NCBI GenBank assembly: GCA_041659805.1 | Contig: JBAZXP010000001.1 | Location: 880,224-944,223, forward strand | Direction of reading: 5' to 3' | DNA: 64,000 nt | DNA from: Microgenomates group bacterium | Lineage (GTDB): Bacteria; Patescibacteriota; Microgenomatia; Daviesbacterales; UBA10151 | In this document: positions 8,407-41,164 of the stretch, piece by piece | How positions within the stretch are numbered: the first letter of the stretch is position 1 | How the letters are laid out: every line of letters starts with the position of its first letter | Made by a program: the position numbers and the translations under genes | The notes under the pieces: model-generated | What the model saw: only the letters and a program-made list of their open reading frames with translations | Database searches by the model: none | What the model was told of the DNA's origin: nothing

Positions 8407-8454
8407 TTGTTTTATCTTTATCTTTCTAATTATTGACATACAGAATAAACTCTG

Positions 8455-9369: not shown

Positions 9370-9375
9370 GATAAT

Positions 9376-9909: not shown

Positions 9910-9983
9910 ATTCTTTCACCTCCTTTCATCTCTTATTTAAGATTGTCATAGTTTTAAATTTTCGTCAAGAGTTCCAAAGCTCG

Positions 9984-11192: not shown

Positions 11193-11196
11193 AATA

Positions 11197-12249: not shown

Positions 12250-12250
12250 T

Positions 12251-23874: not shown

Positions 23875-23896
23875 CCTATTTTTACCCCTAAAAGGC

Positions 23897-23926
23897 TTGC
23901 CTTTATACACTCAAAAAGGGTATAAT
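23897..23926 (+). promoter_or_regulatory. sigma70-like promoter for gyrA (TTGCCT-18-TATAAT)
   Basis: Hexamers read directly from the sequence upstream of gyrA. Confidence 0.4.
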
Positions 23927-23952
23927 AATTAAAGAGCTTAAGGCTTTTTTTT

Positions 23953-26544
23953 ATGTCTAATATAGGTAAAATAGAATTAACCCCAATTGTAGAAGAGATG
24001 CGCAGGTCATACCTTGACTATGCCATGTCTGTTATTGTTTCCCGTGCTTTGCCTGATGTACGAGATGGCTTAAAGCCTGTGCAAAGAAGAATAATCTTTG
24101 TTATGTATGAGCTAGGCCTTTTACATTCTTCAACTTTTAGAAAATGTGCCAAAATTGCAGGTGACACTTCTGGAAATTACCATCCACACGGTGAATCAAA
24201 TGTTTATGGCGCTTTGGTAAATTTAGTGCAGGACTTTTCCATGCGTTATCCATTAATTGACGGTCAGGGAAACTTTGGTTCAGTTGATGGAGACATGCCT
24301 GCTGCCATGAGGTACACTGAAGCGCGTTTGGCAAATATTTCTGAGGAAATGCTCAGAGATATTAACAAAGGTACTGTTGATTTTATTCCAAACTATGACC
24401 AAACAAAAAATGAACCAACAGTTTTACCTGCAGGAATTCCAAATTTATTACTTAATGGTGCGTCAGGTATTGCTGTTGGTATGGCAACTCAAATTCCACC
24501 TCATAATTTAGGAGAGTTAATTAATGCATTGACTTTCATGATTGATCATCCAGTAAAGCCAGAGGTTCAGCAAAAGTCAGCAAATCAGCAAATCAGCACG
24601 TCAGCGGATCAGCAGGAAAAAGACACTAATTCTGCCGATACTCCGACACTCCGACCTACTGACATTCAGATTCCAGCTGAAACTACTGGAAAATTCCGCT
24701 CAGAAGCCACGGTTGAAGATTTATTAGAATTTGTAAAAGGCCCTGATTTTCCAACAGGTGGATCAATTTATGATCAATCAGAAATTATTAATGCTTATGC
24801 AACTGGTAAGGGCAGAATTGTAATGAGGGCTAAAGCAGAAATTGAAGAAGCCAAAAATGGCAGATTTGATATTATCGTGACAGAACTTCCATACCAGGTT
24901 AATAAGGCAACCTTAATCACCAGAATTGCAGAATTACACAAAGACAAAAAAATAGAAGGAATTTCAGATCTCCGGGATGAATCAGATAGAAGGGGAATGA
25001 GGATTGTAATGGAGTTAAAGCGCGATGCAAAGCCCCAATCTCTACTTAATAACCTTTATAAACACACCTCAATGCAGTCAGTTTTTAATGTAAATATGGT
25101 GGCTTTAGTTGATGGAGTACCTCATTTACTACCACTCAAATATATTCTGGAAGAATTTATCACCCACAGACAAATTATTGTCAGGCGTAGATCAGAGTTT
25201 GAATTAGCAGAAGCCAGAGCCCGTGAACATATCCTGGAAGGGTTAAAAATTGCTGTTGATAATATTGATGAGGTTATTGCCACAATCAGAAAAAGCAAGG
25301 ATGCAGATGACGCCAAGACTAATTTGATGACCAAATTTAAGCTAAGTGACTTGCAAGCTCAGGCAATTTTGGACATGCAACTGCGCAGGTTGGCAGCCTT
25401 GGAAAGACAAAAAATTGAAGATGAGCTTAAGATGGTTCGCGAAACCATTGCCTACTTAGTAGACCTCTTGGCACATCCTGAAAAAATACTGGGAGTTATC
25501 AAAGATGAACTGGCAAAAATTAAGGATAAATTTGCAGACGAGAGAAAAACCCGCGTTTACAAACAAAAAATTGGCGAATTCTCTGAAGAAGATTTAGTGG
25601 CAGATGAACAAACAATAGTAACAATCACTGAAGGAGGTTATATTAAAAGACAACCACCTTCAACTTTTAGAATACAAAATAGGGGAGGAAAGGGTGTTTC
25701 TGGTATTACTACCAAAGAAGAAGATGCAGTTTCCCATATTTTCTACACCAAAACATTAGATAATATTTTGTTCTTTACAGATAAGGGTAGGGTTTTCCAA
25801 ATGAAGGTCTGGGAGATACCAGAAGCCTCCAGAATAGCCAAAGGGCAGGCGATTGTTAATTTAATTAACATTGAGCAAGGAGAAAAAATTACTGCTATTT
25901 TAACGCTCCGACAAAAAGATTCAACTAAATACTTATTCATGTGTACTAAATTCGGTAATGTTAAGAAAACAGAAATAGGAGAATACTCTTCTATTCGGAA
26001 AAATGGTTTAATTTCCATTAAACTGGACGAAAACGACGAGCTGGGATGGGTAAATCCGACAACAGGGGAAGACGAGATGATTATTGTGTCCCGTGATGGT
26101 CAATCAATCAGGTTTAGTGAACACGATGTCAGATCTACACACAGAGATACTGCCGGGGTTAGAGGAGTGAAGCTAAATAAAGGAGATACTGTTGTTTCAG
26201 CTCAAAAGATTGATGATCCAAAATCAGATACAGTTTTAGTGGTTATGGCAAATGGCTTAGGCAAAAAAACCATGATCGCCAATTGGACCAGACAAATTAG
26301 AGGAGGAATGGGTGTTAAAGCAGCCCAGGTAACAGAGAAGACAGGCCCAATTATGACAGCCCAGATTGTTGAAAAAGGCGTTGATACATTGGTGCTTACT
26401 TCTAACAAAGGTCAGATTATTAAATTAAATTTAAATGATGTTCCAACACTTCAAAGACAAACTCAGGGGGTAATCCTCATGAGAATGCGGGAAGGTGAAA
26501 AAGTAGCTGCAGCAGCTATTGTTTCATCCAAGGAAAAAGAGTAA
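23953..26544 (+). CDS. gyrA: DNA gyrase subunit A, with an in-frame low-complexity insertion
   Basis: LPDVRDGLKPVQRRI...QIPPHNL...GPDFPTGG and C-terminal beta-pinwheel repeats. There is a ~45-aa Q/S/T/D-rich insertion between IDHP and VEDLLEFVKGPDFPTGG. Confidence 0.95.
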   Translation: MSNIGKIELTPIVEEMRRSYLDYAMSVIVSRALPDVRDGLKPVQRRIIFVMYELGLLHSSTFRKCAKIAGDTSGNYHPHGESNVYGALVNLVQDFSMRYPLIDGQGNFGSVDGDMPAAMRYTEARLANISEEMLRDINKGTVDFIPNYDQTKNEPTVLPAGIPNLLLNGASGIAVGMATQIPPHNLGELINALTFMIDHPVKPEVQQKSANQQISTSADQQEKDTNSADTPTLRPTDIQIPAETTGKFRSEATVEDLLEFVKGPDFPTGGSIYDQSEIINAYATGKGRIVMRAKAEIEEAKNGRFDIIVTELPYQVNKATLITRIAELHKDKKIEGISDLRDESDRRGMRIVMELKRDAKPQSLLNNLYKHTSMQSVFNVNMVALVDGVPHLLPLKYILEEFITHRQIIVRRRSEFELAEARAREHILEGLKIAVDNIDEVIATIRKSKDADDAKTNLMTKFKLSDLQAQAILDMQLRRLAALERQKIEDELKMVRETIAYLVDLLAHPEKILGVIKDELAKIKDKFADERKTRVYKQKIGEFSEEDLVADEQTIVTITEGGYIKRQPPSTFRIQNRGGKGVSGITTKEEDAVSHIFYTKTLDNILFFTDKGRVFQMKVWEIPEASRIAKGQAIVNLINIEQGEKITAILTLRQKDSTKYLFMCTKFGNVKKTEIGEYSSIRKNGLISIKLDENDELGWVNPTTGEDEMIIVSRDGQSIRFSEHDVRSTHRDTAGVRGVKLNKGDTVVSAQKIDDPKSDTVLVVMANGLGKKTMIANWTRQIRGGMGVKAAQVTEKTGPIMTAQIVEKGVDTLVLTSNKGQIIKLNLNDVPTLQRQTQGVILMRMREGEKVAAAAIVSSKEKE

Positions 26545-26555
26545 ATTTAATATAG

Positions 26556-26759
26556 ATGGAAAAAAAATTAACTGCCATAGCTGTTTTTTATTTTGTGATT
26601 GGATTAGTCTTTGCCATTGCCTTCGCTATTTTTTACCACTGGCCAACACTTTCATACTTTAGCCCAAATTTTTATTCAGTGGTCTTAACCTGGCCATTTC
26701 AAATTCCGGGATTTATAACTGATTTTCAATACTACGGCCTAGCCGGAAAATTATATTAA
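26556..26759 (+). CDS. small hydrophobic protein (hypothetical)
   Basis: 67 aa with one TM helix. It overlaps the convergent recombinase gene by 4 nt. Confidence 0.3.
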   Translation: MEKKLTAIAVFYFVIGLVFAIAFAIFYHWPTLSYFSPNFYSVVLTWPFQIPGFITDFQYYGLAGKLY

Positions 26760-27682
26760 GATATATCCTTATTCCCACTATGAAAAGTCTTATGCACATC
26801 TTTTAAGTGTTTATTGGTTACATGAGTATAGATTTGAGTTGTGGAGATATTGGAATGACCAAGCATTTCCTGCACAGACCTGATATCAGCCCCATTAATA
26901 AGCAAATCTGTGGCAAAAGAATGCCTTAAGGTATGTGGTGTAGCTTTTACTAAAATCCCGGCAGCTTTAACATATTTTTCTACAATTCTTTCAATTGATC
27001 GGGGAGTGAGCCTCATTCCTTCACCTCCAGGACTAACATCAACTGTGCCCTGAAACCTGATAAACAAAGGTGAAAAACTATCTTTTCTGTTTTTTAAATA
27101 CTGATCAAGCCAGTAAATTGCAGACTCACTCAAAAATACCACCCTTTCCTTGGATCCTTTTCCGACAACAGAAAACTCTGCCCGGTCTAAATTTATTGAA
27201 TCGCGGTTTAAAGAAGCTAATTCTGCCACACGAAGCCCTGTTGAAAAAAGAGTTTCCAGAAGAGATCTATCACGCAAACCTCCGATTGTATTTGTTTGGG
27301 GAGATTCAAGCAGTTTTTTTAAGGATTCGTCATCGAGAACTTTAATAGGGGAGGCATCAGTCTCACCAAGCTCAATTTGTTCTGCTGAGAGCGATTCTAT
27401 GCCTTGTTTTGACAAATACCTTAAAAAAGCACGCAGGGCAATCATAAAAAAATTTTGAGTAACTCGCTTTAGTGGCTCTTTTGTTTTGGGATCTGTCCAG
27501 CGGTTTAAAAAAAGGCGGTATTTGCGAACTAAGCTTAAGTTAATATCTGATGGTTTAATATCACCGGCAAAATCCAGAAACCGTTTTAAATAATGATCAT
27601 AATTTTGGATTGTTTTTTGAGACGTATTACGCTCAATTTCCAGATATTCCAAAAAGTCTGTTATAGTTGCAGAAAGAGTCAT
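26756..27682 (-). CDS. tyrosine recombinase XerC/XerD family
   Basis: C-terminal HTLRHSFATDLLINGADIRSVQEMLGHSNISTTQIYTHV (R..H..R..Y catalytic residues). It abuts the cohesin gene. Confidence 0.8.
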   Translation of the reverse strand: MTLSATITDFLEYLEIERNTSQKTIQNYDHYLKRFLDFAGDIKPSDINLSLVRKYRLFLNRWTDPKTKEPLKRVTQNFFMIALRAFLRYLSKQGIESLSAEQIELGETDASPIKVLDDESLKKLLESPQTNTIGGLRDRSLLETLFSTGLRVAELASLNRDSINLDRAEFSVVGKGSKERVVFLSESAIYWLDQYLKNRKDSFSPLFIRFQGTVDVSPGGEGMRLTPRSIERIVEKYVKAAGILVKATPHTLRHSFATDLLINGADIRSVQEMLGHSNISTTQIYTHVTNKHLKDVHKTFHSGNKDIS

Positions 27683-28381
27683 TTAGCGTCTTGCCAAAGA
27701 AATAAAACCCAGGAAAGTTAAAACCCCACCGACTGCAATCAACATTAGAGTAGTATTTAAATCCGCGGTACCGGGTAGCGGCGCAGCTGGGGCTCTTGTA
27801 ATCGGAGCTTCTGTTATAGTTGCAGAAGGTGTTGATATTGGCGCTCCTGTACCGCTACAAGCTCCGGTACCGATAACAAAATTACCATTAACAACCTGAT
27901 TTAAAGTTTCTGCCATAGTTCCTACTTCTACAACATTCGAATCAGTGGTTTTGCTTTTATCATTTGCATCGAAATCGAATTTAATTTGAGTTGCCCCTAC
28001 AGGTGCGGTTTCCAGGACTGTAAAATCAACTGTTGCTAATGTTCCTGAGCCTTTATAGGAAGAAGTCGCAGACGCTAAACCTGAAACTAAAACAGTTCCG
28101 GTAGCTGTATCAATGTTGTTACCGGGGTAATCAGGATAAATACTGCCATTATTTATTTTATTTGCAATAAAGCGGGTTGTATCGTAATTTAAAATCACAT
28201 CTGTGCCTGCAGTATCATAACCACCGGTATCCAGTAAAATCTGCAAAGAAAACTTACAATTTTTGTTAAATGTCCCAGTAGCAGGGGAGAGTGAAAGAGT
28301 AGACCCAGCAGCAAACACCACAGCAGGACTCGTAAAAAGAACGCTTATTATGCTTAAGATTGTTAAAATTACTTTTTTCAT
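27683..28381 (-). CDS. cohesin-like domain protein with a C-terminal LPXTG-type (LPGTA) sorting signal
   Basis: Signal peptide. A cohesin-like beta-sandwich segment (DVILNYDTTRF...GTLATVDFTVLETAPVGATQIKFDF). C-terminus LPGTAD + hydrophobic stretch + ARR. Confidence 0.6.
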   Translation of the reverse strand: MKKVILTILSIISVLFTSPAVVFAAGSTLSLSPATGTFNKNCKFSLQILLDTGGYDTAGTDVILNYDTTRFIANKINNGSIYPDYPGNNIDTATGTVLVSGLASATSSYKGSGTLATVDFTVLETAPVGATQIKFDFDANDKSKTTDSNVVEVGTMAETLNQVVNGNFVIGTGACSGTGAPISTPSATITEAPITRAPAAPLPGTADLNTTLMLIAVGGVLTFLGFISLARR

Positions 28382-29007
28382 TGAGTTATTGTTATATCCA
28401 GGTTTTTAACTTCCTCCAAGACATCATCAGAAGTTTTACTGTCAATTAGGTTTGTATCGTTTGTTCTTTTGGGCGCAAACTCAAGAAAAATCTTAGCTTT
28501 CCCTGCAGCCTTAGCCTGAAAAATAATTGTACCAAATAACCCCTTGGGTACAACTCCTCCAACTTTATTGGTAATTCCTGAAACTGTAATAACTCCGTTT
28601 TTTTCATCAACAGAATTAATAGGGTATTCATCATAAAGATTTCCCAAACTAACAGGAGTTTTTGATGCGTTTGAGGCTAAACTCAAAAGGTTGGCATCAT
28701 AATGAATAATCAAATCTGCGCCGGCCGTCATTTTGTTTGAATCTATATTTATTCCGATCGGCACAACCTCACCAATTTTAAATTGAGTTTTAGGTGAGGT
28801 TAAAGAAATAGTATTTGAGTTCCCAGTTTGTGCCACAGAGGTAGATGTTGAGGTTGCGGTTGGTTGGTTTTGGTTCTGTTTGTTAATTGCCTGATAAGCC
28901 CAAACCCCTTCAGCACCTATTATAATCACAACCAAAATTATTAAATAAATTGGCTTAATATTGCTTAGTATTGATGATATTTTTGTTTGTATATTGGACA
29001 GGTCCAT
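28378..29007 (-). CDS. cohesin-like domain protein with an N-terminal membrane anchor
   Basis: N-terminal TM (IYLIILVVIIIGAEGVWAY), a Q/N/T/S linker, then ADLIIHYDANLL...GTIIFQAKAAGKAKIFLEF, which is cohesin-like. Confidence 0.55.
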   Translation of the reverse strand: MDLSNIQTKISSILSNIKPIYLIILVVIIIGAEGVWAYQAINKQNQNQPTATSTSTSVAQTGNSNTISLTSPKTQFKIGEVVPIGINIDSNKMTAGADLIIHYDANLLSLASNASKTPVSLGNLYDEYPINSVDEKNGVITVSGITNKVGGVVPKGLFGTIIFQAKAAGKAKIFLEFAPKRTNDTNLIDSKTSDDVLEEVKNLDITITQ

Positions 29008-29070
29008 TAAATAAAAATCCTTACTTTAATTGAATCACAAAGGGTTGTCTTCTGTCTAGTTTTATCATAT

Positions 29071-29340
29071 TTATTGTGTTGCTGCTGAAGTCGATTCTGG
29101 TGCAGGAGGACCAAGAGGAGAACGCAGTTCAACGGTTAAAGCAGTTGAGCTGGTTGTTCTTTTATCAGGACTAACATTATCTCCTGTAAATGTAATTGGA
29201 TCTGCTGCTGCTTTTGACCTTAGGAACTGTTGCTCTGAAGCTAATTTTACTCCGACAGGAATTACCAGCACCATAATTCCGATAATCAACAGGGTTATAA
29301 TATTTTTCTTATTTAATGTGCGTGTATTATTCTCGTCCAT
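29071..29340 (-). CDS. truncated paralog of the 31879..32583 product (shares the N-terminal TM + QQFLRSKAA..ITF signal)
   Basis: 89 aa that align with the first ~90 aa of the 234-aa protein. It may be a gene fragment. Confidence 0.4.
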   Translation of the reverse strand: MDENNTRTLNKKNIITLLIIGIMVLVIPVGVKLASEQQFLRSKAAADPITFTGDNVSPDKRTTSSTALTVELRSPLGPPAPESTSAATQ

Positions 29341-29342
29341 AT

Positions 29343-31877
29343 TTAATCTCCACTCTTATTATAATTATTTTGTAAGCAAGAGTAATCAACAGAGTTAACC
29401 CTACCATCATTATTTAAATCACCAGGTCTGGTAACATCAGAATTAATTGCCCATTCTCTGGACATCTCACCTTTATCAAAAGCATTAACTTTATTATCAG
29501 GGGAGGAAACTGGATAGATATCTCCTACGTATAGAACAATTTCACCCAGATTAGTCGTTCCTTCTTCTGCCACAAACTCAACTCTTCTACTGACAGTTTT
29601 AGGAGCTTTAAGACTCAACACATAAGTTTTTCCGATTTCAATACCAGGTGTAAAATCAACAGGTTTACCTTCTTTATCAATTTTAATCTTTTTATTAATC
29701 AGGGATTTAGCACCTTCAACCTTTTCTTTGATATCAACCGCTACATTATCCATTGATAAATCACCGCCAGAAGCCAAACAAGTAGTTTTCTCTGTAAAAT
29801 CGACTGTTGTCAGGTCCAGTGAACAATAACCATTTACCACAGTACCATCATCCAAAGTGAGCACAATTTGATGACGACCTCCGGTTAGTTTCTCATTCAC
29901 ACTGGATCTAATCTCATACCTGGTATCATTGTTTGCTCGGACAGCACCAGACTGAGTTGCAGACCCAGAAGAAGTTGTTTCCCTCCCCAAAGCTATCCAG
30001 GAACTAATATTTGCCCGCTTACCTTCAACGCTAATATTCCCAGAACCTTGTTCATCGTGTGGTCCAATATTTATACCTCTGACGTTCACCAATGTTCCGG
30101 TTCCTAAAGGATTAAATGTGCAGGTTGCTGAAGTAACTCTTGGTTGACCACCAATATATTTAATACTTTTTGTAACAACAGGACTTTTATTGCCTTTATT
30201 ATCTCTAAACTGACAAAACAGGTTCAAATTTCCACCAGGGACAACGTTATAAGTAAACTCATAATTAAATAATATAGGGGCGCCAGATCCATCTTGATTC
30301 CTGTACGTCTTCCATTGTGGGGCGCTTGAACCAGCATCATCCTTATCAAAACTTTGTTCTGAACACCTGTAATCCGTGGTATAGGTAGGAATTGTAGGAG
30401 TTGGCGGAGGAGGAGTAGGAGTAGGAGTAACATAAGTAATTTGACGTTGGCTAACTTCACTGGTGGTAGTCTGATCAGATTTTTTAAACTGAACAAATAC
30501 AGTATAAACTTTTCCTCCTACAGGATTGGATAGGGTATGACCAAAGAGTGTTAAAGTATCACTGCCGCCTGCAGGAGAATATGATCTCCAGGGATATGAA
30601 GCGTTTTCAGGATCTCCACCATTAAAAGGCACATCAACAGAATAGCGGTATTGGTAAGTTCTGTCGGTGGAAGATGGGGGATTTGTGACTGTAGGAGCAT
30701 CATTCCTTACAATGATTGTTTTTACACTAGAGCCCCCGCAAGAAGTAACATTACCCGTATTCCCTGGGATACCAGTACCACAATCTATACAATTTATGCC
30801 CGCAGGACAACTCGTAGCCGAAAATGACCATTTACAAAAAGCGTTGCCTGAACATGATATTCTGGCTGAACCATTTACCTCTGAGCTATGTGAAGTTATA
30901 AAAGGACCTACATAATATGTACCTGCAATAGTTGGGGTAAACCCACCTGAAAATGAACCGGAATTAGGGCCAGACCTTCTGTCTGCAGAGTTTGTTAAGT
31001 CTGCAGGCACTGCGCTTACATTACAATAGATATTATTACTACCGCCACCCTCCAAATTACTTGTAGGACAACCTGTCGTATCTCTATTTTGGCGACTCCA
31101 AAAAAGTTTGGTGCTTGCTAACCCTCCGGGAACATTACCCCCATTAACATCAACCCTAAAATCAAGCCTTGTACCAGGACGGACATTATTCGGATCAACA
31201 CCAGAGGTAGTAAGGTTCACTACTGCTGAAATTGGACCTGAACCATCAGTGCTACCTGGAGCAGCATTAGCATCTCTAGAAAACCAAACGTGATTCCATC
31301 TACAATTACCCCAATCGTCTGTAGATGATGTAGGTTTCCTAATAGCTTTAATTTCTATAGACTGGTCATTAGAAGGTGTTGCAAAAGTTCCTTGCTGAAT
31401 AGGAATTCCACAATCGTTACCTAAATTATCAGTCAGTTTATGAAACCATTTGGTTAACTTAAAATTAGGATCATCAACATGTATTGACACTCTTGTTGGT
31501 ACACCATCCGCTGTACCCAAAGGAATACTTATACGTTCAAAAGTATAAAAAGGCTCATCATGGACAAAAGTACTACCTTTTCCAGAAGGGTCAGGGTTAC
31601 AGCCACTTGAAAATGAATCACCATCAGTTCCTTGACTCCAAGTCACCTTATAAGTTGGACCGCCTTGACAAGAAAGGCCTCCGCAAGAACCGCCAATTAT
31701 TTTTCTTTGGTTAGGACAACTACCATAAAGTGATGAATCCTCATCTGTCACTTCACCAAGTAAAACAGCTCCCTCTCGTGAACCGTTCCAAACAGCTGAT
31801 GCTTTTTGGGCAGAAAAAACAAAACAGACTGTTAATATTAAGCTAAATAAATATGTAAATACTTTAATTTTTTTCAT
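29343..31877 (-). CDS. large secreted cysteine-rich protein with a C-terminal dockerin-like Ca-binding repeat
   Basis: Sec signal peptide (…SAQKASA|V), a PTPTPPPPTPT linker, and C-terminal GDLNNDGRVNSVDYSCLQNNY, which matches the dockerin repeat consensus. Confidence 0.6.
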   Translation of the reverse strand: MKKIKVFTYLFSLILTVCFVFSAQKASAVWNGSREGAVLLGEVTDEDSSLYGSCPNQRKIIGGSCGGLSCQGGPTYKVTWSQGTDGDSFSSGCNPDPSGKGSTFVHDEPFYTFERISIPLGTADGVPTRVSIHVDDPNFKLTKWFHKLTDNLGNDCGIPIQQGTFATPSNDQSIEIKAIRKPTSSTDDWGNCRWNHVWFSRDANAAPGSTDGSGPISAVVNLTTSGVDPNNVRPGTRLDFRVDVNGGNVPGGLASTKLFWSRQNRDTTGCPTSNLEGGGSNNIYCNVSAVPADLTNSADRRSGPNSGSFSGGFTPTIAGTYYVGPFITSHSSEVNGSARISCSGNAFCKWSFSATSCPAGINCIDCGTGIPGNTGNVTSCGGSSVKTIIVRNDAPTVTNPPSSTDRTYQYRYSVDVPFNGGDPENASYPWRSYSPAGGSDTLTLFGHTLSNPVGGKVYTVFVQFKKSDQTTTSEVSQRQITYVTPTPTPPPPTPTIPTYTTDYRCSEQSFDKDDAGSSAPQWKTYRNQDGSGAPILFNYEFTYNVVPGGNLNLFCQFRDNKGNKSPVVTKSIKYIGGQPRVTSATCTFNPLGTGTLVNVRGINIGPHDEQGSGNISVEGKRANISSWIALGRETTSSGSATQSGAVRANNDTRYEIRSSVNEKLTGGRHQIVLTLDDGTVVNGYCSLDLTTVDFTEKTTCLASGGDLSMDNVAVDIKEKVEGAKSLINKKIKIDKEGKPVDFTPGIEIGKTYVLSLKAPKTVSRRVEFVAEEGTTNLGEIVLYVGDIYPVSSPDNKVNAFDKGEMSREWAINSDVTRPGDLNNDGRVNSVDYSCLQNNYNKSGD

Positions 31878-31878
31878 C

Positions 31879-32583
31879 TTAGTGCTGTGGCGGTACCGTC
31901 AATAAATCGTTCGGCCCACAACGTGGGTTTTGCGGAATAGTAGCAACCGGATTACCAGTACAATAAACCATACCATTAAGTGTCTGTGCGTTAGCTACAA
32001 TGTAATAACGTTGACTATCATTTGGGTATACCCATGTACCAGAAGCTGTACATGTACTGGCTCCGCCACAATCATTATTAACCGCTACCTGAGTCCAGGA
32101 ACTTGCCAGTGTTAAATTAGATGCTTGATTAGCTACATATACCCATGCTTTTCTGAGATTTACTCCTGTTGCAGTAGTGGTATATGTATTATTTGGTCCG
32201 GAAGATACAGAAGCAGAAAGTCCTGGAAACGGAGAAGGAGAAATTGGAGCTGAAGTTGGTACTTGTGTCACACTAGCTGTGGGTACTGTGGTAGTAGTTG
32301 GATTTGCTGTCGCAGTAGGGGTTACAGAACCGGGTTCTCCATATGGGCCAAAAGGAGAATGAAAAGCTATATCTACATTAGGCGAAGTAGTTCTACAACC
32401 GCTAGTATCACAAGTAACGCCTGTCCCACCAAAAGTAATTGCCTCACCTGCAGCCCTGGAGCGAAGTCTTTGTTGCTGTTGAACTAAATAAACGCTTAGA
32501 GGAACTGCTACAACTACTAAGATTAAAACAACAGCAGCTATGATATTTCTTCGAGTTAAAAAGGATTTTATAGAGTCATTCAT
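31879..32583 (-). CDS. surface protein with a conserved N-terminal TM + QQQQRLRSRAAGEAITF motif, a T/P-rich linker and a Cys-containing C-terminal domain
   Basis: First gene of the cohesin/dockerin operon. It is a paralog of the 89-aa product. Confidence 0.55.
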   Translation of the reverse strand: MNDSIKSFLTRRNIIAAVVLILVVVAVPLSVYLVQQQQRLRSRAAGEAITFGGTGVTCDTSGCRTTSPNVDIAFHSPFGPYGEPGSVTPTATANPTTTTVPTASVTQVPTSAPISPSPFPGLSASVSSGPNNTYTTTATGVNLRKAWVYVANQASNLTLASSWTQVAVNNDCGGASTCTASGTWVYPNDSQRYYIVANAQTLNGMVYCTGNPVATIPQNPRCGPNDLLTVPPQH

Positions 32584-32635
32584 GTAAAGTAGGGCATTAG
32601 ATCCAGATTAGAGCAAAAGGACAACGATTGTCAAG

Positions 32636-32772
32636 CACAGTTCAGCAAATCAGCAGTTCAGCAAATCGGCAAATTCAGCGAGTCAGCAAGACAGAATGTC
32701 AAATGAGTGGTTTATATTGTACGACAAGACATCAGTAGATCAGCATGTCGGCGAATCGGCAAATTCAGCAGA
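32636..32772. repeat. iteron-like degenerate direct repeats (cagcaaatc[a/g]gcaaattcagcgagtcagcaag family) in a divergent promoter region
   Basis: At least five tandem or dispersed copies are visible. Inverted copies lie at 33163-33203 and 33961-34030, and a related copy inside gyrA at 24568-24616. Confidence 0.6.
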
Positions 32773-32801
32773 GTAATAGATCTGATAATATATAAATTAG
32801 C

Positions 32802-33152
32802 ATGATAAAAGATGTGACAGATTTGGAGGTTTACAAAGAATCAATGTATTTGTTGCATGAAGTAAATACTTTAACAAGTTTAATCTCACAAACAGAAAAG
32901 GATTTGATCTCGCAGATTAAAAGAGCCTCGAGATCTATTCCTGCAAACTTAGCAGAAGGGTTTGCAAAAAAATCTTCTACAAAGGAATTTAAGCGCTACC
33001 TGATGATCTCCTTAGGCTCAAGCGATGAACTTATAACTCATTTCAGGGTCTTAATAATAATTAATCCAGGTTTACAAAGTCAGTCCGAAGATATTTTAAA
33101 AAAATACCAAATTTTATCTAAAAGACTTAACGTCCTATACCACAAATGGTAG
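32802..33152 (+). CDS. four-helix-bundle protein of the 23S rRNA intervening-sequence / DGR Avd (accessory variability determinant) family
   Basis: SQIKRASRSIPANLAEGFAKKSSTKEFKRYLMISLGSSDEL matches the family signature (SQ..RAa.Si..NIAEG..r.s..ef..fl.iA.GS..E). Confidence 0.75.
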   Translation: MIKDVTDLEVYKESMYLLHEVNTLTSLISQTEKDLISQIKRASRSIPANLAEGFAKKSSTKEFKRYLMISLGSSDELITHFRVLIIINPGLQSQSEDILKKYQILSKRLNVLYHKW

Positions 33153-34031
33153 TTTTTATTAATACTGACTCGCTGAAACTCCGATCTCCCGATACTCTGA
33201 AGCTCCGTAGCCACGAGACCCTAGAAGGCCCCTAAAACGGCCGGAAAGCAGGGAAGTGGTATGGTAAGCTATCTAAAGATTAGGTTGTCCTAAAGCCCCA
33301 AACTCATTAGAGGCAAAACATAAGTAAGACGAAAAATTAGTGGACAAATTATCAGGAAAAAGTGGCAAAAATAGCACGAATAAAACCGGCTTAAAAATCT
33401 ATAAAAAAATCATTCATGCGCAAATTTATGGATTTATACCTCTTCCCTTAAGCGTGTGTCCGTCGTCGCATAAGATACATTGTACGACTAGATAATTGGG
33501 AAGTATAATCAAAATGCATATTCCCGGGAGTGGAGTTAAACATACACTAAGAGAGGGGCGTGCTTCTGTTCCTCTTAACCAGTCCTTGCCATAGATATGA
33601 ACAGAAGCTATTTACTCTCTCCTCCATTCATGTAGATCCTCTTTTTTCACGCGTGAAAACTCAATTAGCACTAACTATATCATTTTGACAGTATTAGCCT
33701 CAAAACAGAGTACTCTACCCTCAAAAATATTAAAGAAAATTGCTATTTTTTGAGGCTAAATCGAAGCTAAAAATTAAACCCAGAAGAGTACTATACCCTA
33801 TAGTTTTAGCTTCAAAGTTATCCACAGTTTATTCTCTATCTGTATCAAACTATATCAACTATACTACCCTATAGTTTTTATGTTCGGGTTTTGTTCAATA
33901 CTATCAAACTATATCATTTAAACCTAAAATCACCATTTCTCTCTCCTCCACTTTCTTTCTGATTTTGCCGATTCTCTGATACTTCGACTCTTGCTGATTC
34001 TCTGACCCCGCCGATACCCCGATATTCTGAA
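33153..34031. other. ~880-bp ORF-free region rich in repeats and stem-loops; possible ncRNA or decayed element
   Basis: No ORF of 60 aa or more in any frame. Stem-loops at 33719-33755 and 33763-33813. Direct repeats aactatatca (x3), taccctatagttttt (x2) and agagtact[c/a]taccct (x2). Terminal inverted copies of the 32636-32772 repeat family. Confidence 0.4.
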
Positions 34032-34871
34032 CTATCCTGTCCAGGAAGTTGTGATTAATGCAATTAAAAATATTCCCAATCCAAATCCAAGAAATAACCA
34101 AATATCTACTTCGGTAATCCTCTCTTTCAAAGTATGAGTCGCTATCCCCAATGTTACATAAAGTCCTGTTGAAACAATTAAGGATGACATTGGCTTGGCA
34201 ATCGGCCAAAACGACAGAGCAATTGCCATCTCCCCTATTATTAAGGCTAAAACAGCTGAGTAAACTAAAATAAAAGCACTTATACCCTCCATATCCAGAG
34301 ACCAAATCACCTGTAAAATTAATGGAAATCCAATTAAAAATACCGCTAACCCATTCCAAATAAAAAATAAATTTAAAGAAAATACTACGTTGAACAACAT
34401 AAAAGCAGTTATAAGAGTTAGCACGAAAACCGTTGTTGAAGCCACTCTATATAAAGGAATAGTTCTGATGGAAGCCACATTAAACACATTTTGTGAAAGT
34501 AGCAAAGTATAAAAAACTAGGCCAAAGGCAAAAGCCACTGGTAATCTGGTAAGCCATCTGACCGGCAAAAGAAAATAATAGCTGGCAACAGCCAAAGTAA
34601 ATGCCATCGGGAGTATCATTAATATAATTGCTTTCAAGCTATTTAAACCTTCCCATAAAGCCCAAATTGATAGGACAAAGGAAAGTAATGCTAACCCTAC
34701 AATAAAGCGGTTTGTTAAAAAAACCGGCACTAATTGGGTTGATAAAAGCCCCAAGGAAAGTATGATAGAAACTAAAATAATTTTATGCCTTTTTTCAAAA
34801 GATAATTTCTCACGGGTTAGGGTAAGGAATATTTTTATTAGAAAATCACTGAATCTAAAAATTAAATTCAT
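34032..34871 (-). CDS. polytopic membrane protein (hypothetical)
   Basis: About 8 TM helices. Co-oriented and overlapping with ruvC (4 nt). Confidence 0.5.
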   Translation of the reverse strand: MNLIFRFSDFLIKIFLTLTREKLSFEKRHKIILVSIILSLGLLSTQLVPVFLTNRFIVGLALLSFVLSIWALWEGLNSLKAIILMILPMAFTLAVASYYFLLPVRWLTRLPVAFAFGLVFYTLLLSQNVFNVASIRTIPLYRVASTTVFVLTLITAFMLFNVVFSLNLFFIWNGLAVFLIGFPLILQVIWSLDMEGISAFILVYSAVLALIIGEMAIALSFWPIAKPMSSLIVSTGLYVTLGIATHTLKERITEVDIWLFLGFGLGIFLIALITTSWTG

Positions 34872-35419
34872 TTTGCGACTAATTTTAAAACATGACAGAT
34901 GGCAATAGCAAGTGCATCCACTGCGTCATCGGAAAATTTCTTATCTCTTCTTTTTAAACCAGACATAGGCTTTAAAAGTTCTCTGGTTTTATTTCCATTT
35001 TTACCCAAAAATTTTCTAACTCCTTCGTGAACTTCTTTCTTATCAGCTCTTCCCCCACCTGCTACCATTAATTTAACCTGAGGGCCTGTGTATTCATGAA
35101 TAGGTATATTTCTCATCCCCGCAGATAACATTATGACTCCCCTGGCCTGACCGACAGATATTGCTGTTCTGGTGTTTGATCCGAAAAATAACATCTCAAT
35201 TACAATCATATCAGGATTAAAATTCTCTACAATTTTTTCCAGTTCATGGTGTAATACCACCAACCTTTTTTCCATCACCTGATCTTTTTCTGTAGTAATA
35301 AAACCGTAATCTACAAGTTCTATATCATAGTTAAATTCCCGTTCCAAAATATCATCAGGAATTTTAATCAAACCATAACCGGTAGTGGCTGTCCCCGGGT
35401 CAATGCCTAAAATTATCAT
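34868..35419 (-). CDS. ruvC: crossover junction endodeoxyribonuclease RuvC
   Basis: MIILGIDPGTATTGYGLI N-terminus with an RNase H-like fold. Confidence 0.85.
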   Translation of the reverse strand: MIILGIDPGTATTGYGLIKIPDDILEREFNYDIELVDYGFITTEKDQVMEKRLVVLHHELEKIVENFNPDMIVIEMLFFGSNTRTAISVGQARGVIMLSAGMRNIPIHEYTGPQVKLMVAGGGRADKKEVHEGVRKFLGKNGNKTRELLKPMSGLKRRDKKFSDDAVDALAIAICHVLKLVAK

Positions 35420-35422
35420 AAA

Positions 35423-36166
35423 TTAAGTGAGAATCTCAAAATTTGCCCAAACTTTATGGATATCATCATGATCTTCTAGTTTTTCTGCAAAGTTCATCAC
35501 CTTTTCTGCTATAGCTTCATCTTTTATTTCCACTAAAATATTTGGTTTAAAAATTATTTCAGACTCCTCAATCTCATATCCGGCCTGAGTAATTTTTGTA
35601 CCCATAGTATTTAGTTCCAGGCTTGTTACATATACTAAATACATTTGCTTTCCTTCGTCCAAATAATCTTCAACATCCTCGGCTCCAAAATCTATAAGCT
35701 CAAGCATTTCATCATCCACACTTTTCCCTTTCCCCTTCACCCTTACCTCTCCCTTTTTATCAAACATGTAAGATGTGGAACCATTTGCTCCCAACACTCC
35801 CCCGTTTTTATCAAATATAAATTTAATTTCCTGGTTAGTTCTTAAACGGTTGTCCGTTACACCTTCAAGTAAAAATGCTACTTTACCTGGCCCAAAACCT
35901 TCGTAAACAACTTCCTCCAGTGTTTGGCCCGGTAACTTTCCCAAGCCTCTGTCTATAGCCCTCTGAACGTTTTCTTTGGGCATGTTAACTTTTTTAGCTG
36001 CTTCCAGTTCCATCCGAAGTCTGGGGTTAAAATCCGGGTCTCCGGAATTTCCAAGCCTGGCTGCGATAGAAATTGCATTTGCTGTTTTAGTAAAAGTTGC
36101 AGAACGTTTTATATCGGCAACGCCTTTAGCGCGCTTGATGGTGCTCCATTTGCTGTGTCCTGACAT
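35423..36166 (-). CDS. yebC: YebC/PmpR family DNA-binding transcriptional regulator
   Basis: MSGHSKWSTIKRAKGVADIKRSATFTK signature N-terminus. Confidence 0.9.
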   Translation of the reverse strand: MSGHSKWSTIKRAKGVADIKRSATFTKTANAISIAARLGNSGDPDFNPRLRMELEAAKKVNMPKENVQRAIDRGLGKLPGQTLEEVVYEGFGPGKVAFLLEGVTDNRLRTNQEIKFIFDKNGGVLGANGSTSYMFDKKGEVRVKGKGKSVDDEMLELIDFGAEDVEDYLDEGKQMYLVYVTSLELNTMGTKITQAGYEIEESEIIFKPNILVEIKDEAIAEKVMNFAEKLEDHDDIHKVWANFEILT

Positions 36167-36197
36167 AACGTTTAGATATTACTGTATATATTTGGGA

Positions 36198-36227
36198 TTG
36201 ACAAGGTACTCAAAAAACCGATATACT
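36198..36227 (+). promoter_or_regulatory. sigma70-like promoter (TTGACA-18-TATACT)
   Basis: Consensus -35 hexamer. It sits 10 nt upstream of the ATG at 36237. Confidence 0.45.
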
Positions 36228-36236
36228 CGTTCCTTG

Positions 36237-36980
36237 ATGACTAATGATTCCACTATCGAATTACAACAACTGGCAATTAAAGCTGCTTTAAACTCAAACT
36301 GGCAACAAGCAATTGATTTTAATTTACAAATTTTAGAAGAAGAACCCAAAAGTGTTGAAAGCTTAAACCGTCTTGGAAGAGCTTATTTTGAAATAGGAGA
36401 ACTTGCTAAATCAAAAGAATCTTTTGATAAATCCTTGGAAATTGATCCGTACAATCAAATTGCAGCAAAATTTATTAAACGGATCGAAACATGCAAGAAA
36501 AAAGGATCAAAAAACATAAATACACTCGGCTCCAGTCATAACTGTGCGCAAGTTGACAGTGATCTGTTTATTGAAGAACCGGGCAAAACTAAATTAGTTA
36601 CCCTTTTAAAGGTTGCAGAACCACAAAAACTTTCATTACTGTCCCCTGGTGCTTTAGTCAATTTGAATATTAAAAATAAAGTCGTTGCTATTAATGACGC
36701 TGACGGAGAATATCTTGGTGTTCTACCGGATGATTTATCCCGCCATTTAGTCAGACTAATTCATGGTGGTAATAAATATCAGGCAATTATTAAGACTGCC
36801 AAAATCAATGGCTTAACAATTTTAATCAGGGAAACATATCGCTCTGCCAGATTTAAAAACCAACCTTCATTTTTGGATAATCTGAATATGGCTCAAACCT
36901 ATTCTTCTGATAATATCGTAATTTTAGATGAAGGCGAAGAGGATGCAGGCACTGATTCAGATGAAGAAGAAAGAGCTTAA
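36237..36980 (+). CDS. TPR-repeat protein with an acidic C-terminal tail
   Basis: Start reset to MTNDSTIELQQLAIKAAL. The upstream part of the track ORF overlaps yebC on the opposite strand. TPR-like helices are present and the C-terminus is EGEEDAGTDSDEEERA. Confidence 0.5.
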   Translation: MTNDSTIELQQLAIKAALNSNWQQAIDFNLQILEEEPKSVESLNRLGRAYFEIGELAKSKESFDKSLEIDPYNQIAAKFIKRIETCKKKGSKNINTLGSSHNCAQVDSDLFIEEPGKTKLVTLLKVAEPQKLSLLSPGALVNLNIKNKVVAINDADGEYLGVLPDDLSRHLVRLIHGGNKYQAIIKTAKINGLTILIRETYRSARFKNQPSFLDNLNMAQTYSSDNIVILDEGEEDAGTDSDEEERA

Positions 36981-36983
36981 GTC

Positions 36984-37748
36984 CTAGTTTAACAAATCTT
37001 TTATATCCTCAATTGTTACCACAAAATGCCCACCCTCTTTATTCAAAGTATTTTGAGGTAAAGCTCTTTTTTGATAATGTTTCAATATTTGTATTGTTGA
37101 AAAAGCCTGTGGAACAGTAACCAGATTTGTATTTTTCACTTTTTCATCTATCTCAGATTTAATCATCCTGGCTTTGCCATCATCACCGGTTATTACAACA
37201 ACTCTAATTAAGGTTTTAAATAAAATCTGCAAGCCATCTCTTTCACACTTTGGCTGGGTAACTACCTGCCACCATAGCTCCTCTGAATCAGACAAATCAG
37301 CAGAAACTTCCTTCAAACCTAAAATTGGATCATCTTTTCCTTCGTATTCTAAAGGCTTATCCTCTTTCCGGAAGTCCTTAGAGCTAATTTCCCAGGCTAA
37401 AACGCCTTTGGGAATTGTGTCACCATATTTTACACTGTAGTCTTCCAATTCTACCAAGTCCAACTGAGTGATAAATTGTTTTAAAATCACGGTTGGCCCG
37501 TAAACCACCAATGCTTTTTTAGAACCTTTATACAACCTTTCAAAAGATACAATTAATCTTTTCTGATTGATGATTTTATCTATTTTTTCTAAAATTTCCT
37601 TATTTAAACCTGCTTCGTTTTTGACCAAGTATAAAGAATAAACAGTATCTGAATGAATAGGCATGCTGGCATAATCGCGCATAGACCTTAAAGCTAAAAT
37701 CAGAGAAGCCACAATAATAAAACCGAATAGAATAACCCAAATGATCAT
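36984..37748 (-). CDS. hypothetical membrane-anchored protein
   Basis: N-terminal TM; no recognisable motif. Confidence 0.45.
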   Translation of the reverse strand: MIIWVILFGFIIVASLILALRSMRDYASMPIHSDTVYSLYLVKNEAGLNKEILEKIDKIINQKRLIVSFERLYKGSKKALVVYGPTVILKQFITQLDLVELEDYSVKYGDTIPKGVLAWEISSKDFRKEDKPLEYEGKDDPILGLKEVSADLSDSEELWWQVVTQPKCERDGLQILFKTLIRVVVITGDDGKARMIKSEIDEKVKNTNLVTVPQAFSTIQILKHYQKRALPQNTLNKEGGHFVVTIEDIKDLLN

Positions 37749-37785
37749 AATAACCCCTATATAATACCATAGAGGCTAGCCTGGA

Positions 37786-38937
37786 TCACTTTTGATACTT
37801 TAGAAAGGAGTCTTCTCCTAAAATGATAGTAATATCGGCCCGCGATGAATCGAGAGATACAGCATCAGAAGCACAAGCTTCACCCTGGTCTAAACCAAAT
37901 AATGGAATCTTTTGCCAAAAGGAAGAAGTTTTGGGTTGCGGACAATATAGATTCAATGCCTTAGAAATATAGTTTGAGGTATAGCTTTTTTTAGAAATAA
38001 TCGTGCTTTTGCTAACTTTATCAAGATGATTAGATGTGAAAATCACTCTGCCACCCATATTAGTCAATACTCTCGCAGCTCTTTCGGCCAAACCAGGAAC
38101 ATCGGTCGCATTAAAAATTCCAATTGATAATCCTTCTTTTTTAATCTTTTCAGTTTCAAAATAACCAACTTCAAATTGATCCAACTTAATTTCATCAATC
38201 GCAATCACCCTACTACCATCAGGCAAAAGCAACCATTTTGTTAGTTCTGATTTTTCTAAATCAATTGTTTTAATCTTGTCTCCCCTAACCTCTTTTATTG
38301 CCCACCAAACTTTAAAAAACTCTACTAAGTTAAGATCTGTCTTTGCTTTTGACAAAATATCAATTCCGGGCAAAAAGCTAGCTCTTTCTGAGTTAATTAA
38401 ATCAGGCAAGCTTTCCCGTTTATCATTAAAGATTAAATAACCGTCTGCCAAAATATCAAAAGAAATATTAATTGAGTCTCTTAAAAGATACGGTCCCATC
38501 GGTGGTTTTTCTGCCTGTCCCAAATCATAGATACTGCGCATAGGCCAGTTTCCAAAACCGTATGGCACATCCAAATTCAAATCTTCAGGAAATTTAATTA
38601 TGGTTAACTCTTTTCCCGCTGGCTGATATGATAAAAGATAAGAATTATCCATCTTTACCACCAAATTGAAATCACTTTGTCCATCCCAGGAATTTAGTTT
38701 AGGATGATTATTTATTGATAGCTGCGGATTTAAACCACCTAAAAATCCAAATATTTTTCCGAATATAATCAGCGCAATTAAGAAAAATATTGCTGTTATC
38801 CCCAATGCAATTGGGTTATTCGAACGCGTTGATTTTATTTTTTTCTTTTTAGGAGTTGCCGCAAGACGAATCGAGGCTTTTCGTTCATATTTTTTCCAAT
38901 TTAAAGTAGCAGTCTTTTTCCGGGCAGGCTTAGACAT
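37786..38937 (-). CDS. LytR-CpsA-Psr (LCP)-like cell-envelope protein with a LytR_C-like C-terminus
   Basis: Basic N-terminal tail + TM, an LCP-like core (FNLVVKMDN...RSIYDLG), and a C-terminus LSIGIFNATDVPGLAERAARVLTNMGGRV that is LytR_C-like. Confidence 0.5.
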   Translation of the reverse strand: MSKPARKKTATLNWKKYERKASIRLAATPKKKKIKSTRSNNPIALGITAIFFLIALIIFGKIFGFLGGLNPQLSINNHPKLNSWDGQSDFNLVVKMDNSYLLSYQPAGKELTIIKFPEDLNLDVPYGFGNWPMRSIYDLGQAEKPPMGPYLLRDSINISFDILADGYLIFNDKRESLPDLINSERASFLPGIDILSKAKTDLNLVEFFKVWWAIKEVRGDKIKTIDLEKSELTKWLLLPDGSRVIAIDEIKLDQFEVGYFETEKIKKEGLSIGIFNATDVPGLAERAARVLTNMGGRVIFTSNHLDKVSKSTIISKKSYTSNYISKALNLYCPQPKTSSFWQKIPLFGLDQGEACASDAVSLDSSRADITIILGEDSFLKYQK

Positions 38938-38950
38938 AAAAATTGCTTAT

Positions 38951-39082
38951 TTACCTTTCCTTTTTTTCCTTGCTGATTACCTCAGGTGGAGTAAAAACAG
39001 GAGCAAAACCGGTATATGAATCTGAAACATTTTTCTTCTTTTTCTTTTTTTCGCCTTTATAAAAGCTACCAAATGATCCCAT
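38951..39082 (-). CDS. small lysine-rich protein (43 aa), hypothetical
   Basis: ATG preceded by a strong Shine-Dalgarno, aagaaGGAGGTGtgatatATG. Product: MGSFGSFYKGEKKKKKKNVSDSYTGFAPVFTPPEVISKEKKER. It is below the ORF-track length cutoff. Confidence 0.3.
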   Translation of the reverse strand: MGSFGSFYKGEKKKKKKNVSDSYTGFAPVFTPPEVISKEKKER

Positions 39083-39104
39083 ATATCACACCTCCTTCTT
39101 TGTG

Positions 39105-39299
39105 TCACATAAACAAATACAACAATACTGTCATTAAAAGTAAGGCAATACCGGAATATAAAGTTAATATAGGTGTAAGTTGTATTAAACCCATACCAGC
39201 CAGTGTTAAAAGAAGACCTGAGACTCCTGTTAATACAATTAAGATTACCTTTTTGAACCTGTTAAATAAATTCTGTAAAGAAAATTTTATTCCATCCAT
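39105..39299 (-). CDS. small membrane protein (64 aa), hypothetical
   Basis: Two predicted TM helices. It lies directly upstream of the 43-aa ORF and the LCP gene. Confidence 0.3.
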   Translation of the reverse strand: MDGIKFSLQNLFNRFKKVILIVLTGVSGLLLTLAGMGLIQLTPILTLYSGIALLLMTVLLYLFM

Positions 39300-39448
39300 A
39301 TTATAAGTTTAGAGTAAAAGTCATCTTCAAATCAAGTATCAGTCACAAATTTAGATTAGTTAGCTGTACACCTCTCAGGTGTACAATGCGTACACCTGGC
39401 AATTTAGCTACACAAACCGAAGACTGGGTCTCCATCCAGAATTATTTT

Positions 39449-41158: not shown

Positions 41159-41164
41159 AAAATA

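Follow-up and report, generated by a model that had tools for sequence, protein, structure and literature searches.

A solitary PF05635 four-helix-bundle gene of a Microgenomates bacterium is probably the cargo of an intervening-sequence cassette lying outside rRNA

PF05635 is a very large family of four-helix-bundle proteins of unknown function, and its members are usually annotated either as proteins of ribosomal RNA (rRNA) intervening sequences (IVSs) or as accessory factors of diversity-generating retroelements (DGRs). One such gene lies at positions 32802-33152 of a 64,000-nucleotide stretch of DNA from a Microgenomates group bacterium (GenBank assembly GCA_041659805.1, contig JBAZXP010000001.1, positions 880,224 to 944,223), which was analysed as a whole and is referred to as the window. 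Which of the two labels does this gene deserve? A first-pass annotation, made from the sequence alone, had described it as an orphan gene for a relative of the DGR accessory protein Avd and had offered three explanations: a decayed DGR, an Avd acting with a distant reverse transcriptase (RT), or a paralog of the rRNA-IVS type. Our analysis argues against the first two and, based on a protein tree and on relatives located in 23S rRNA genes, for the third. We consider it probable (roughly 72%) that the gene is the cargo of an IVS cassette of the type found in the Candidate Phyla Radiation (CPR), lying outside rRNA, and that it is neither an orphan Avd nor the leftover of a decayed DGR.

The open reading frame (ORF) and its family assignment are real. 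Both sequence strings that had been quoted as the family signature, SQIKRASRSIPANLAEGF and EFKRYLMISLGSSDEL, are present in the 116-aa product, and the protein matched Pfam PF05635 (23S_rRNA_IVP) with 79.5 bits at a cut-off of 33.8 (E = 2.6e-22) and NCBIfam TIGR02436 ('four helix bundle protein') with 73.2 bits at a cut-off of 24. As the Pfam alignment spans residues 7-110, corresponding to profile positions 2-105 of 106, the protein is a full-length member of the PF05635/TIGR02436 family with scores above the curated thresholds. An AlphaFold2 model, built on 28 homologs, had a mean predicted local distance difference test (pLDDT) score of 94 and consists of four helices (residues 7-25, 30-55, 60-87, and 89-115). 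A Foldseek search with this model yielded template modelling (TM) scores of 0.86 to 2GSC and 0.85 to 2RLD at 22-28% identity, identifying an up-down four-helix-bundle fold. The gene is located between a surface-protein operon and the genes DUF5656-ruvC-yebC. The sequences of two other assemblies that carry the gene match the window at 100%, leaving no strain variation to read, and no match to the PADLOC defence models was obtained.

The description of the protein as Avd-like is correct with respect to the broad fold, whereas a specific kinship is not apparent. When the family profile was searched against the PDB, 2GSC and 2RLD were retrieved, but not Bordetella Avd, even at an E value of 10. 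In the Foldseek search, Avd (4DWL, 8UB7) reached TM scores of 0.70-0.76 at an identity of 9-10% and E values of 0.1-0.5, and ranked among copper-storage proteins and designed bundles. Because the profile misses Avd and Foldseek ranks Avd beside such generic bundles, the Avd likeness of the 116-aa protein appears to hold at the fold level only. At this level, the protein and Avd of the Bordetella phage BPP-1 share the four-helix-bundle fold and a similar size; Avd is a pentamer, and the PDB entries of the structural relatives 2GSC and 2RLD contain five chains each.

We collected 357 confirmed homolog loci from species-representative genomes, of which the best 80 were kept. The nearest 43 loci, comprising three separately fetched contigs and the top 40 of the 80, stem mostly from Microgenomates and other CPR bacteria; loci are given below by their numbers in this collection. 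The best match in the collection (L004, 55% identity) is embedded in a 23S rRNA gene according to the Rfam large-subunit (LSU) rRNA model, and blastn with the 23S sequence of this locus demonstrated that the homologs of L005, L010, L013, and L034 are also located within 23S. In 17 more distant loci the same search placed the homolog within 23S at a second position. In a neighbour-joining tree, calculated without bootstrap, the window protein falls into a clade of orthologs that lie next to a predicted dif site (see below), and this clade is sister to a CPR clade in which proteins of 23S-embedded cassettes, including L004, L005, L010, and L013, are mixed with those of intergenic cassettes. A placement with rRNA-IVS proteins, named in the first-pass annotation as evidence against its DGR proposal, is therefore what the tree gives. 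ORFs of the 23S_rRNA_IVP type, with unknown function, have already been reported in CPR 16S and 23S insertions; a term search of that paper for repeats of the inverted or tandem kind found none mentioned (PMC11270868). The window itself contains no rRNA, as had been noted before: the only match of an Rfam search at the gathering threshold was a tRNA-Leu at 52192.

No component of a DGR was detected in the window. A DGR comprises an RT, a template repeat (TR), a variable repeat (VR), and usually Avd (PMC10053308). Gene calls with precomputed Pfam assignments, taken from an identical public contig that covers positions 23277-41798 of the window (about 9 kb in each direction), included gyrase, a tyrosine recombinase, cohesin proteins, DUF5656, RuvC, YebC, and others, but no RT, and none was found by Pfam among 10 further unassigned ORFs of the window. 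The combination of RT motifs 4 and 5 was absent from all open frames of at least 150 aa in the six frames of the 64 kb, and neither tblastn nor inspection of the ORFs yielded RT fragments. Thus, the statement that no RT ORF exists within about 10 kb was borne out by both the gene calls and the motif scan. Similarly, no RT motif occurred at any of 83 homolog loci, each taken with 2.5-kb flanks. A TR/VR pair, which had been suggested as a check, was sought by an adenine-tolerant diagonal scan in which positions 32584-34031 were compared with either strand of the entire window, including the neighbouring surface-protein genes: no 60-nt segment agreed at 93% or more of the non-A (or non-T) positions anywhere in the window. 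In addition, the neighbouring 844-aa protein lacks a lectin-type variable domain and ends in a dockerin.

Instead, the gene is enclosed by arrays of short repeat units (Table 1), which had been overlooked in the first-pass annotation, as had the conserved non-coding region downstream and a related element in gyrA. The inner arms are predicted to form a duplex of -35.8 kcal/mol (z = -3.4 compared to shuffled sequences) and the outer arrays one of -52.2 kcal/mol (z = -4.8); every pairing of a left with a right array beats the shuffled controls (-36 to -52 kcal/mol, z = -3.4 to -5.3). A 13-nt stretch in the inner right arm is perfectly complementary to positions 32674-32686. Tandem Repeats Finder (TRF) independently gave a period of 8 for the upstream TCAGCAAA arrays at the locus and in gyrA. 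Three consecutive TCRG motifs at 8-nt spacing occurred 13 times in the window, counting both strands, and not once in 300 block shuffles, and all 13 belong either to this locus or to the one site in gyrA. Flanking inverted repeats capable of forming an extended stem are hence present at the locus, though in an eroded state. The same architecture was observed around most of the nearest CPR homologs. In the 38 nearest loci with full 150-nt flanks, the upstream 150 nt contained on average 4.9 TCRG compared to 1.1 CYGA, and the downstream 150 nt 4.3 CYGA compared to 1.1 TCRG. At 37 more distant, mostly non-CPR loci this contrast is nearly gone (upstream 1.6 TCRG and 1.4 CYGA, downstream 2.2 CYGA and 0.7 TCRG). 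The arms of well-preserved cassettes are predicted to form very long helices, reaching, for instance, -133 kcal/mol (z = -15.5) in L009. Two other explanations for the arms were rejected. FtsK-orienting (KOPS-like) octamers are inconsistent with the occurrence of the same arrays around rRNA homologs and in gyrA, and the IS200-like Y1 transposase encoded at 51408-52091 has its own, unrelated hairpins resembling repetitive extragenic palindromic (REP) sequences.

Cassettes of this kind also occur between protein genes. This applies to the pairs L008/L033, L018/L019, and L007/L016, in each of which the two cassettes share the same flanking genes in different genomes. As the flanking genes are common to each pair across genomes, we concluded that the intergenic cassettes are old residents and not recent insertions. 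Two diverged, repeat-flanked four-helix-bundle cassettes, L016 and L019, lie 12 kb apart on a single Woesebacteria contig (JAGOVG010000004.1), and in a deltaproteobacterial metagenome-assembled genome the gene is found in four 23S-bearing contigs (L044-L047). Judging from these two cases, the PF05635 family can be present in multiple copies per genome.

Upstream of the gene, between the inner left arm and the start codon, we noticed an element of the form TGnTAnnAT, which is conserved among the cassettes: in 22 of 33 start-aligned cassettes the TG is located at -15/-14 from the ATG, and no Shine-Dalgarno sequence is visible. The copy in the window, TGATAATAT, lies 4 bases farther upstream of the ATG than in most cassettes, and the same form, TTCTGATATAAT, occurs upstream of rpmE at 60277-60296. 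We infer that TGnTAnnAT represents an extended -10 promoter with a transcript start at or next to the ATG. As the element is conserved near the ATG and not accompanied by a Shine-Dalgarno sequence, the four-helix-bundle ORF would be self-promoted and translated from a leaderless or short-leader mRNA. A scan of the locus for consensus promoters and terminators revealed nothing informative.

Table 1. Features at and around the PF05635 gene in the 64-kb window
Feature	Position	Strand	Description
ORF-less arm pair: TCAGCAAA array, short loop, CCGAnnnn array	24566..24680	+	115 nt, in frame in gyrA (23953-26544, +)
Xer-type tyrosine recombinase	26756..27682	-	Pfam Phage_integrase 1.8e-42 and N-terminal SAM-like domain; 5.8 kb from predicted dif
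Outer left array, TCAGCAAA x ~6	32642..32700	+	TRF period 8, 5.9 copies
Half-site ATA-TTGTACGAC-A (= ATATTGTACGACA)	32714..32726	+	Direct copy of predicted dif right arm, preceded by ATA
Inner left arm, 8-nt TCRGnnnn units	32732..32777	+	Unit array
Extended -10-like element TGATAATAT	32783..32791	+	Just upstream of ATG, without Shine-Dalgarno sequence
Four-helix-bundle gene (PF05635/TIGR02436, 'IVS protein')	32802..33152	+	116 aa, intact, ATG and stop codon
Inner right arm, 8-nt CYGAnnnn units	33165..33212	+	Unit array; units are the inverse complement of left-arm units
Conserved non-coding block AGGCACGAG..CCCTAAAACGGC..GGGGAG..AAATAnGTACAATAA..CYCYTCCCC	33213..33462		From alignments; fixed ~235-261 nt from dif-like site
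Predicted dif site TCGTCGCATAA-GATACA-TTGTACGACTA	33463..33490	+	28 bp, 11-6-11, inverted arms
Outer right array, CYGAnnnn units	33959..34038	+	Ends at DUF5656 stop codon

A related element without an ORF is situated within gyrA of the same genome. It sits in the loop between the MIDHP and ATVEDL motifs of the protein, adds about 38 residues, and has a predicted RNA fold of -32 kcal/mol (z = -2.3). This loop varies in length among CPR GyrA proteins, and the closest GyrA (L205, 82% amino acid identity) has a shorter, unrelated loop sequence without arrays. Since gyrA carries the succession of array, loop, and array in frame and without an ORF, the arm repeat also exists as an ORF-less element that is tolerated in an essential protein. 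Rickettsia palindromic elements (RPEs) are miniature palindromic insertions in coding regions. The 115-nt arm pair resembles them in being a palindromic repeat inserted in frame into the gene of an essential protein, where it occupies a surface loop and leaves the reading frame unbroken. Unlike the RPEs, it belongs to a different sequence family, has tandem-octamer arms, is kin to a protein-coding cassette of the same genome, and occurs as one coding-region copy in the window.

Removal of IVS helices by RNase III is known for Salmonella, Leptospira, and Coxiella. We propose that the CPR cassette would comprise, in this order, a left array of 8-9-nt TCRG units, an extended -10 promoter, the PF05635 ORF, and a right CYGA array that is the inverse complement of the left one. 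The two arms of a read-through transcript could form a long imperfect helix; within rRNA this would be, by analogy to the Coxiella IVS that is excised by RNase III (PMC4990558), a helix of the kind removed by this enzyme. Its own promoter would allow the ORF to be expressed at any site that the cassette occupies. As the most economical guess, the 116-aa protein is probably a small oligomeric nucleic-acid-binding factor that helps the cassette or the host; a binding of the arm repeats by the four-helix-bundle protein is speculation. The sequences thus suggest that the PF05635 gene travels in the CPR as a defined cassette, made up of tandem-octamer arms, a putative promoter placed for leaderless expression, and the ORF. 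As this cassette is found in rRNA, between genes, and, without its ORF, inside an essential coding sequence, it provides testable hypotheses on the target of the protein.

IVSs are an already known kind of element, and the cassette shares several properties with 23S IVSs that carry an 'S23p'/PF05635 ORF, as in Leptospira, Coxiella burnetii, Xanthomonas, and the CPR 16S and 23S insertions. The proteins belong to the same family, the ORF is likewise enclosed by stem-forming inverted repeats, and the closest homologs are truly located in 23S. The pattern of a selfish or neutral element with decay in some lineages can also be compared to the reductive evolution of Coxiella S23p (PMC4990558). Unlike these IVSs, the window copy lies outside rRNA, has arms of tandem 8-9-nt TCRG/CYGA units, is under purifying selection, and neighbours a dif-like site. 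What our analysis adds is the octamer-array architecture, the in-frame relative in gyrA, and a candidate CPR dif site with one-sided modules, all three being the more interesting by-products.

Several points weigh against the assignment to an IVS cassette. The location that defines an IVS, inside 23S or 16S rRNA in place of a helix tip, is not given at this locus. The arms of the window copy are eroded to short helices with internal loops between them, and efficient processing of this copy by RNase III is therefore doubtful. A transcript that starts at the internal promoter would leave the left arm outside the mRNA, so that the arms could play a part only in read-through RNA or as DNA. Furthermore, the Coxiella homolog S23p is reportedly not synthesised in vivo (PMC4990558); in contrast to S23p, the internal extended -10 element suggests that the window ORF may be expressed on its own. 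Finally, the RT searches covered the 64-kb window of a genome of 1.13 Mb.

The gene is old at its present position. Intact orthologs in the same gene context were found in the window and in L001, L002, L003, L011/L102, L028, L030, and L031. Among these, the proportion of nonsynonymous differences (pN) was 0.17-0.38 while that of synonymous differences (pS) was saturated at 0.65-0.87, and dN/dS ranged from 0.13 to 0.27 where it was computable. This low pN at saturated pS indicates that the intact four-helix-bundle protein is under purifying selection. Between the same flanking genes, different stages of decay were observed. Only the first codons are left in L095, L203 has an internal deletion, and the gene is apparently disrupted in L155. 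It is gone in L110, L120, L132, L139, and L168, with part of the left arm being kept in L132. Some lineages therefore appear to benefit from the four-helix-bundle gene or to tolerate it, and others can do without it. We regard the window copy as having long been passed on vertically in the terminus region and as working without a reverse transcriptase.

Downstream of the gene, a non-coding stretch of 880 nt extends to the convergent DUF5656-ruvC-yebC operon. The order and spacing of its blocks are conserved among relatives whose four-helix-bundle proteins are only 44-74% identical. The long block adjoining the inner right arm (Table 1) is kept in Microgenomates relatives even in the absence of the four-helix-bundle gene (L168). 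A structured non-coding RNA was considered for this block and rejected: RNAalifold on 13 orthologs predicted only the palindrome described next, without covariation, and did not support the GGGGAG/CTCCCC pairing that had been seen by eye. No Rfam match was obtained for the block, either at the gathering threshold on the window or at E values up to 10 on positions 32400-34300.

The most conserved element of the 880-nt stretch is a 28-bp palindrome, 313 nt downstream of the four-helix-bundle gene, that is present in one copy in the 64-kb window. Scanning metagenomes with TCGCATAANNNNCATTGTRCGAC identified at least 119 contigs with exactly one such motif per contig, in many gene contexts, and the logo derived from 119 contigs reads GTCGCATAA-nnTACA-TTGTGCGAC. 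Gene orientation and GC skew were determined at the 20 loci that extend for 3 kb or more in either direction. In 15 of them most genes point toward the site from the two sides, and a divergent majority was found in none (P ~ 4e-6 against an expectation of 25%). The GC skew is higher on the left than on the right in all 20, but skew follows gene orientation in these genomes, so that it does not count as independent evidence. The local switch is less sharp in the window and in its closest relatives, where a 6-kb minus-strand block (the Xer gene and the cohesin/dockerin operon) lies to the left of the site. A gene for an Xer-type recombinase is directly beside the site in L086, L122, and L193, and 5-9 kb away in the window, L139, and L168, where synteny is kept. 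At dif sites, which are present once per chromosome in the region of the replication terminus, Xer recombinases resolve chromosome dimers. Xer/dif core sites are built from two arms of about 11 bp with dyad symmetry around a centre of 6-8 bp (PMC5357621). Based on the 11-6-11 architecture, the single copy per contig, the convergent orientation, the skew, and the nearby Xer genes, we predict positions 33463-33490 to be a candidate dif site of these CPR genomes. It shares with known dif/Xer sites the 28-bp layout, the imperfectly symmetrical 11-bp arms, the 6-bp centre, the single copy, the convergence of orientation, and the proximity of an Xer-type gene. The near identity of the predicted arms suggests that a single recombinase may act here, as is the case for XerS, XerH, or XerA. 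A literature search found no paper joining the term 'dif site' with CPR or Patescibacteria; the candidate would apply to a large part of the CPR.

The DNA beyond the dif-like site contains a perfect 16-nt palindrome at 33644-33659 (TTTTCACGCGTGAAAA), followed by a perfect DnaA box (TTATCCACA) at 33818-33826 and repeated TATCAAACTATATCA units at 33843-33923. Related TTTTCACG(C/A) and TTGTCCACA motifs recur in syntenic loci. A replication origin at 33640-33950, with the DnaA box, the TTTTCACG-type repeats, and the palindrome as its elements, was rejected, as genes and GC skew do not diverge there. This reading was also dropped because the neighbouring 28-bp motif behaves as a terminus marker.

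A second, incomplete copy of the predicted dif site lies upstream of the gene in the form of a half-site (Table 1). Such copies of the right arm are distributed unevenly in the metagenome loci: compared to an expectation of about 2, the 1.5 kb upstream of the full site hold 18, while 1 lies downstream (P ~ 9e-12), a sign that small modules accumulate on one side. Different lineages have different cargo between half-site and full site, namely the four-helix-bundle cassette in the lineage of the window, unrelated ORFs in L107 and L131, and only short spacers in others. The upstream half-site has no recognisable left arm, and no integrase is encoded between half-site and full site. Four-helix-bundle cassettes elsewhere, whether in rRNA or intergenic, have no dif-like sequence nearby.

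DGRs are common in the CPR, and the gene adjoins a surface-protein operon, as had been correctly stated: the neighbouring operon encodes surface proteins with cohesin and dockerin domains. An orphan Avd could thus assist, in trans, a DGR RT encoded at another place in the genome and diversify the adjacent cohesin/dockerin proteins, the more so as PF05635 is the Pfam family most frequently found in DGR loci and Avd has been called homologous to the PF05635 representative 2GSC on the basis of sequence and structure alignment (PMC10053308). Unlike in the Avd systems, however, no RT, TR, VR, or target gene was found in the window, the 844-aa neighbour offers no VR domain, and the homolog loci are likewise devoid of RT motifs. 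As the closest relatives are embedded in rRNA or are intergenic and repeat-flanked, and the family profile misses Avd, we regard this explanation as very improbable. A decayed DGR that has lost its RT and TR by deletion would account for 880 nt of non-coding DNA, which is unusual in a compact genome, but this stretch is conserved in block order and spacing and contains the dif-like site. Given further that RT fragments are missing, that the four-helix-bundle gene is under purifying selection, and that RT pseudogene fragments or TR-like sequences are absent in at least 15 syntenic loci, a decayed DGR is hardly credible. The locus therefore calls for caution against labelling lone PF05635 members as 'orphan Avd' or decayed DGRs.

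Two further explanations start from the dif-like site and not from the protein family. Known integrative mobile elements exploiting Xer (IMEX) include some with dif at one end and a degenerate dif-like site at the other (PMC5357621). In the same manner, the segment from the half-site (32714-26) to dif (33463-90) might be an IMEX-like dif module that entered or is maintained by Xer recombination, with the four-helix-bundle cassette having travelled along or inserted. The one-sided distribution of right-arm copies, the variable cargo between the sites, the absence of an integrase from the segment, and the presence of an Xer gene fit this idea, and extra dif-like fragments with variable cargo on one side are a property of IMEX/dif modules as well. 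In contrast to the latter, the flanking copy is only a half-site and so cannot be a complete recombination site. The product of an attP x dif recombination would place a good chromosomal left arm upstream, which is not observed. Moreover, the arrangement is syntenic and old in Microgenomates and not sporadic, and the cassettes elsewhere do without dif-like sequences. We therefore consider such a module unlikely, although it would be compatible with the cassette itself being of the IVS type. Alternatively, the gene could encode a domesticated host protein with a role at the terminus, for example in modulating Xer/dif like the small Xer activators encoded by IMEX. A small Xer activation factor is encoded by the TLC phage (PMC6744903), at least 8 lineages keep the gene at about 310-330 nt from the dif-like site, and purifying selection acts on the protein. 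Against this, about half of the syntenic relatives (L095, L110, L120, L132, L139, L168, and L203) show a deletion, truncation, or frameshift of the gene while the dif-like site is always kept, and close homologs reside in rRNA and at unrelated intergenic sites; a terminus function is accordingly highly improbable. More far-reaching, and in our view doubtful as a whole, is the proposal that the CPR four-helix-bundle cassettes are a distinct class of self-expressed, palindromic, selfish elements. In that case, the arrays of 8-9-nt TCRG units would be repeated binding sites of a pentameric protein and not a simple RNase III stem, ORF-less derivatives would colonise coding sequence in frame, as in gyrA, and the dif-adjacent copy would belong to an undescribed class of small modules that gather on one side of the CPR dif via Xer.

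Some observations on the remainder of the window are added here. The minus-strand block at 26756-32583 encodes the Xer-type recombinase, followed by two cohesin-domain proteins, the 844-aa protein with its terminal dockerin, and a protein of 234 aa that is rich in Thr and Pro. It represents a cohesin-dockerin surface system in a CPR genome and runs against the prevailing orientation to the left of the dif-like site. At 51349-52122, the gene of the IS200-like Y1 transposase (51408-52091, Pfam Y1_Tnp 3.2e-11) has similar hairpins on either side, GCCTTGTAAGGACCAACCTTGCACGGCTAA and GCCTCTCAAGGACCAACCCTGCAAGGCTAA; this is the layout of a REP-associated tyrosine transposase, and it adjoins the tRNA-Leu gene. 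A large type IV pilus/pilin cluster extends from 1100 to 13960. It includes several prepilin-like genes with N-terminal GFTLIE motifs as well as PilB-, PilT-, and PilC-like genes and a prepilin peptidase, assigned by eye and by one PilX_N match. Finally, a small RNHCP-domain protein (46107-46550, Pfam 2.1e-26) is encoded beside an ORF of 476 aa (44651-46081) without a Pfam match.

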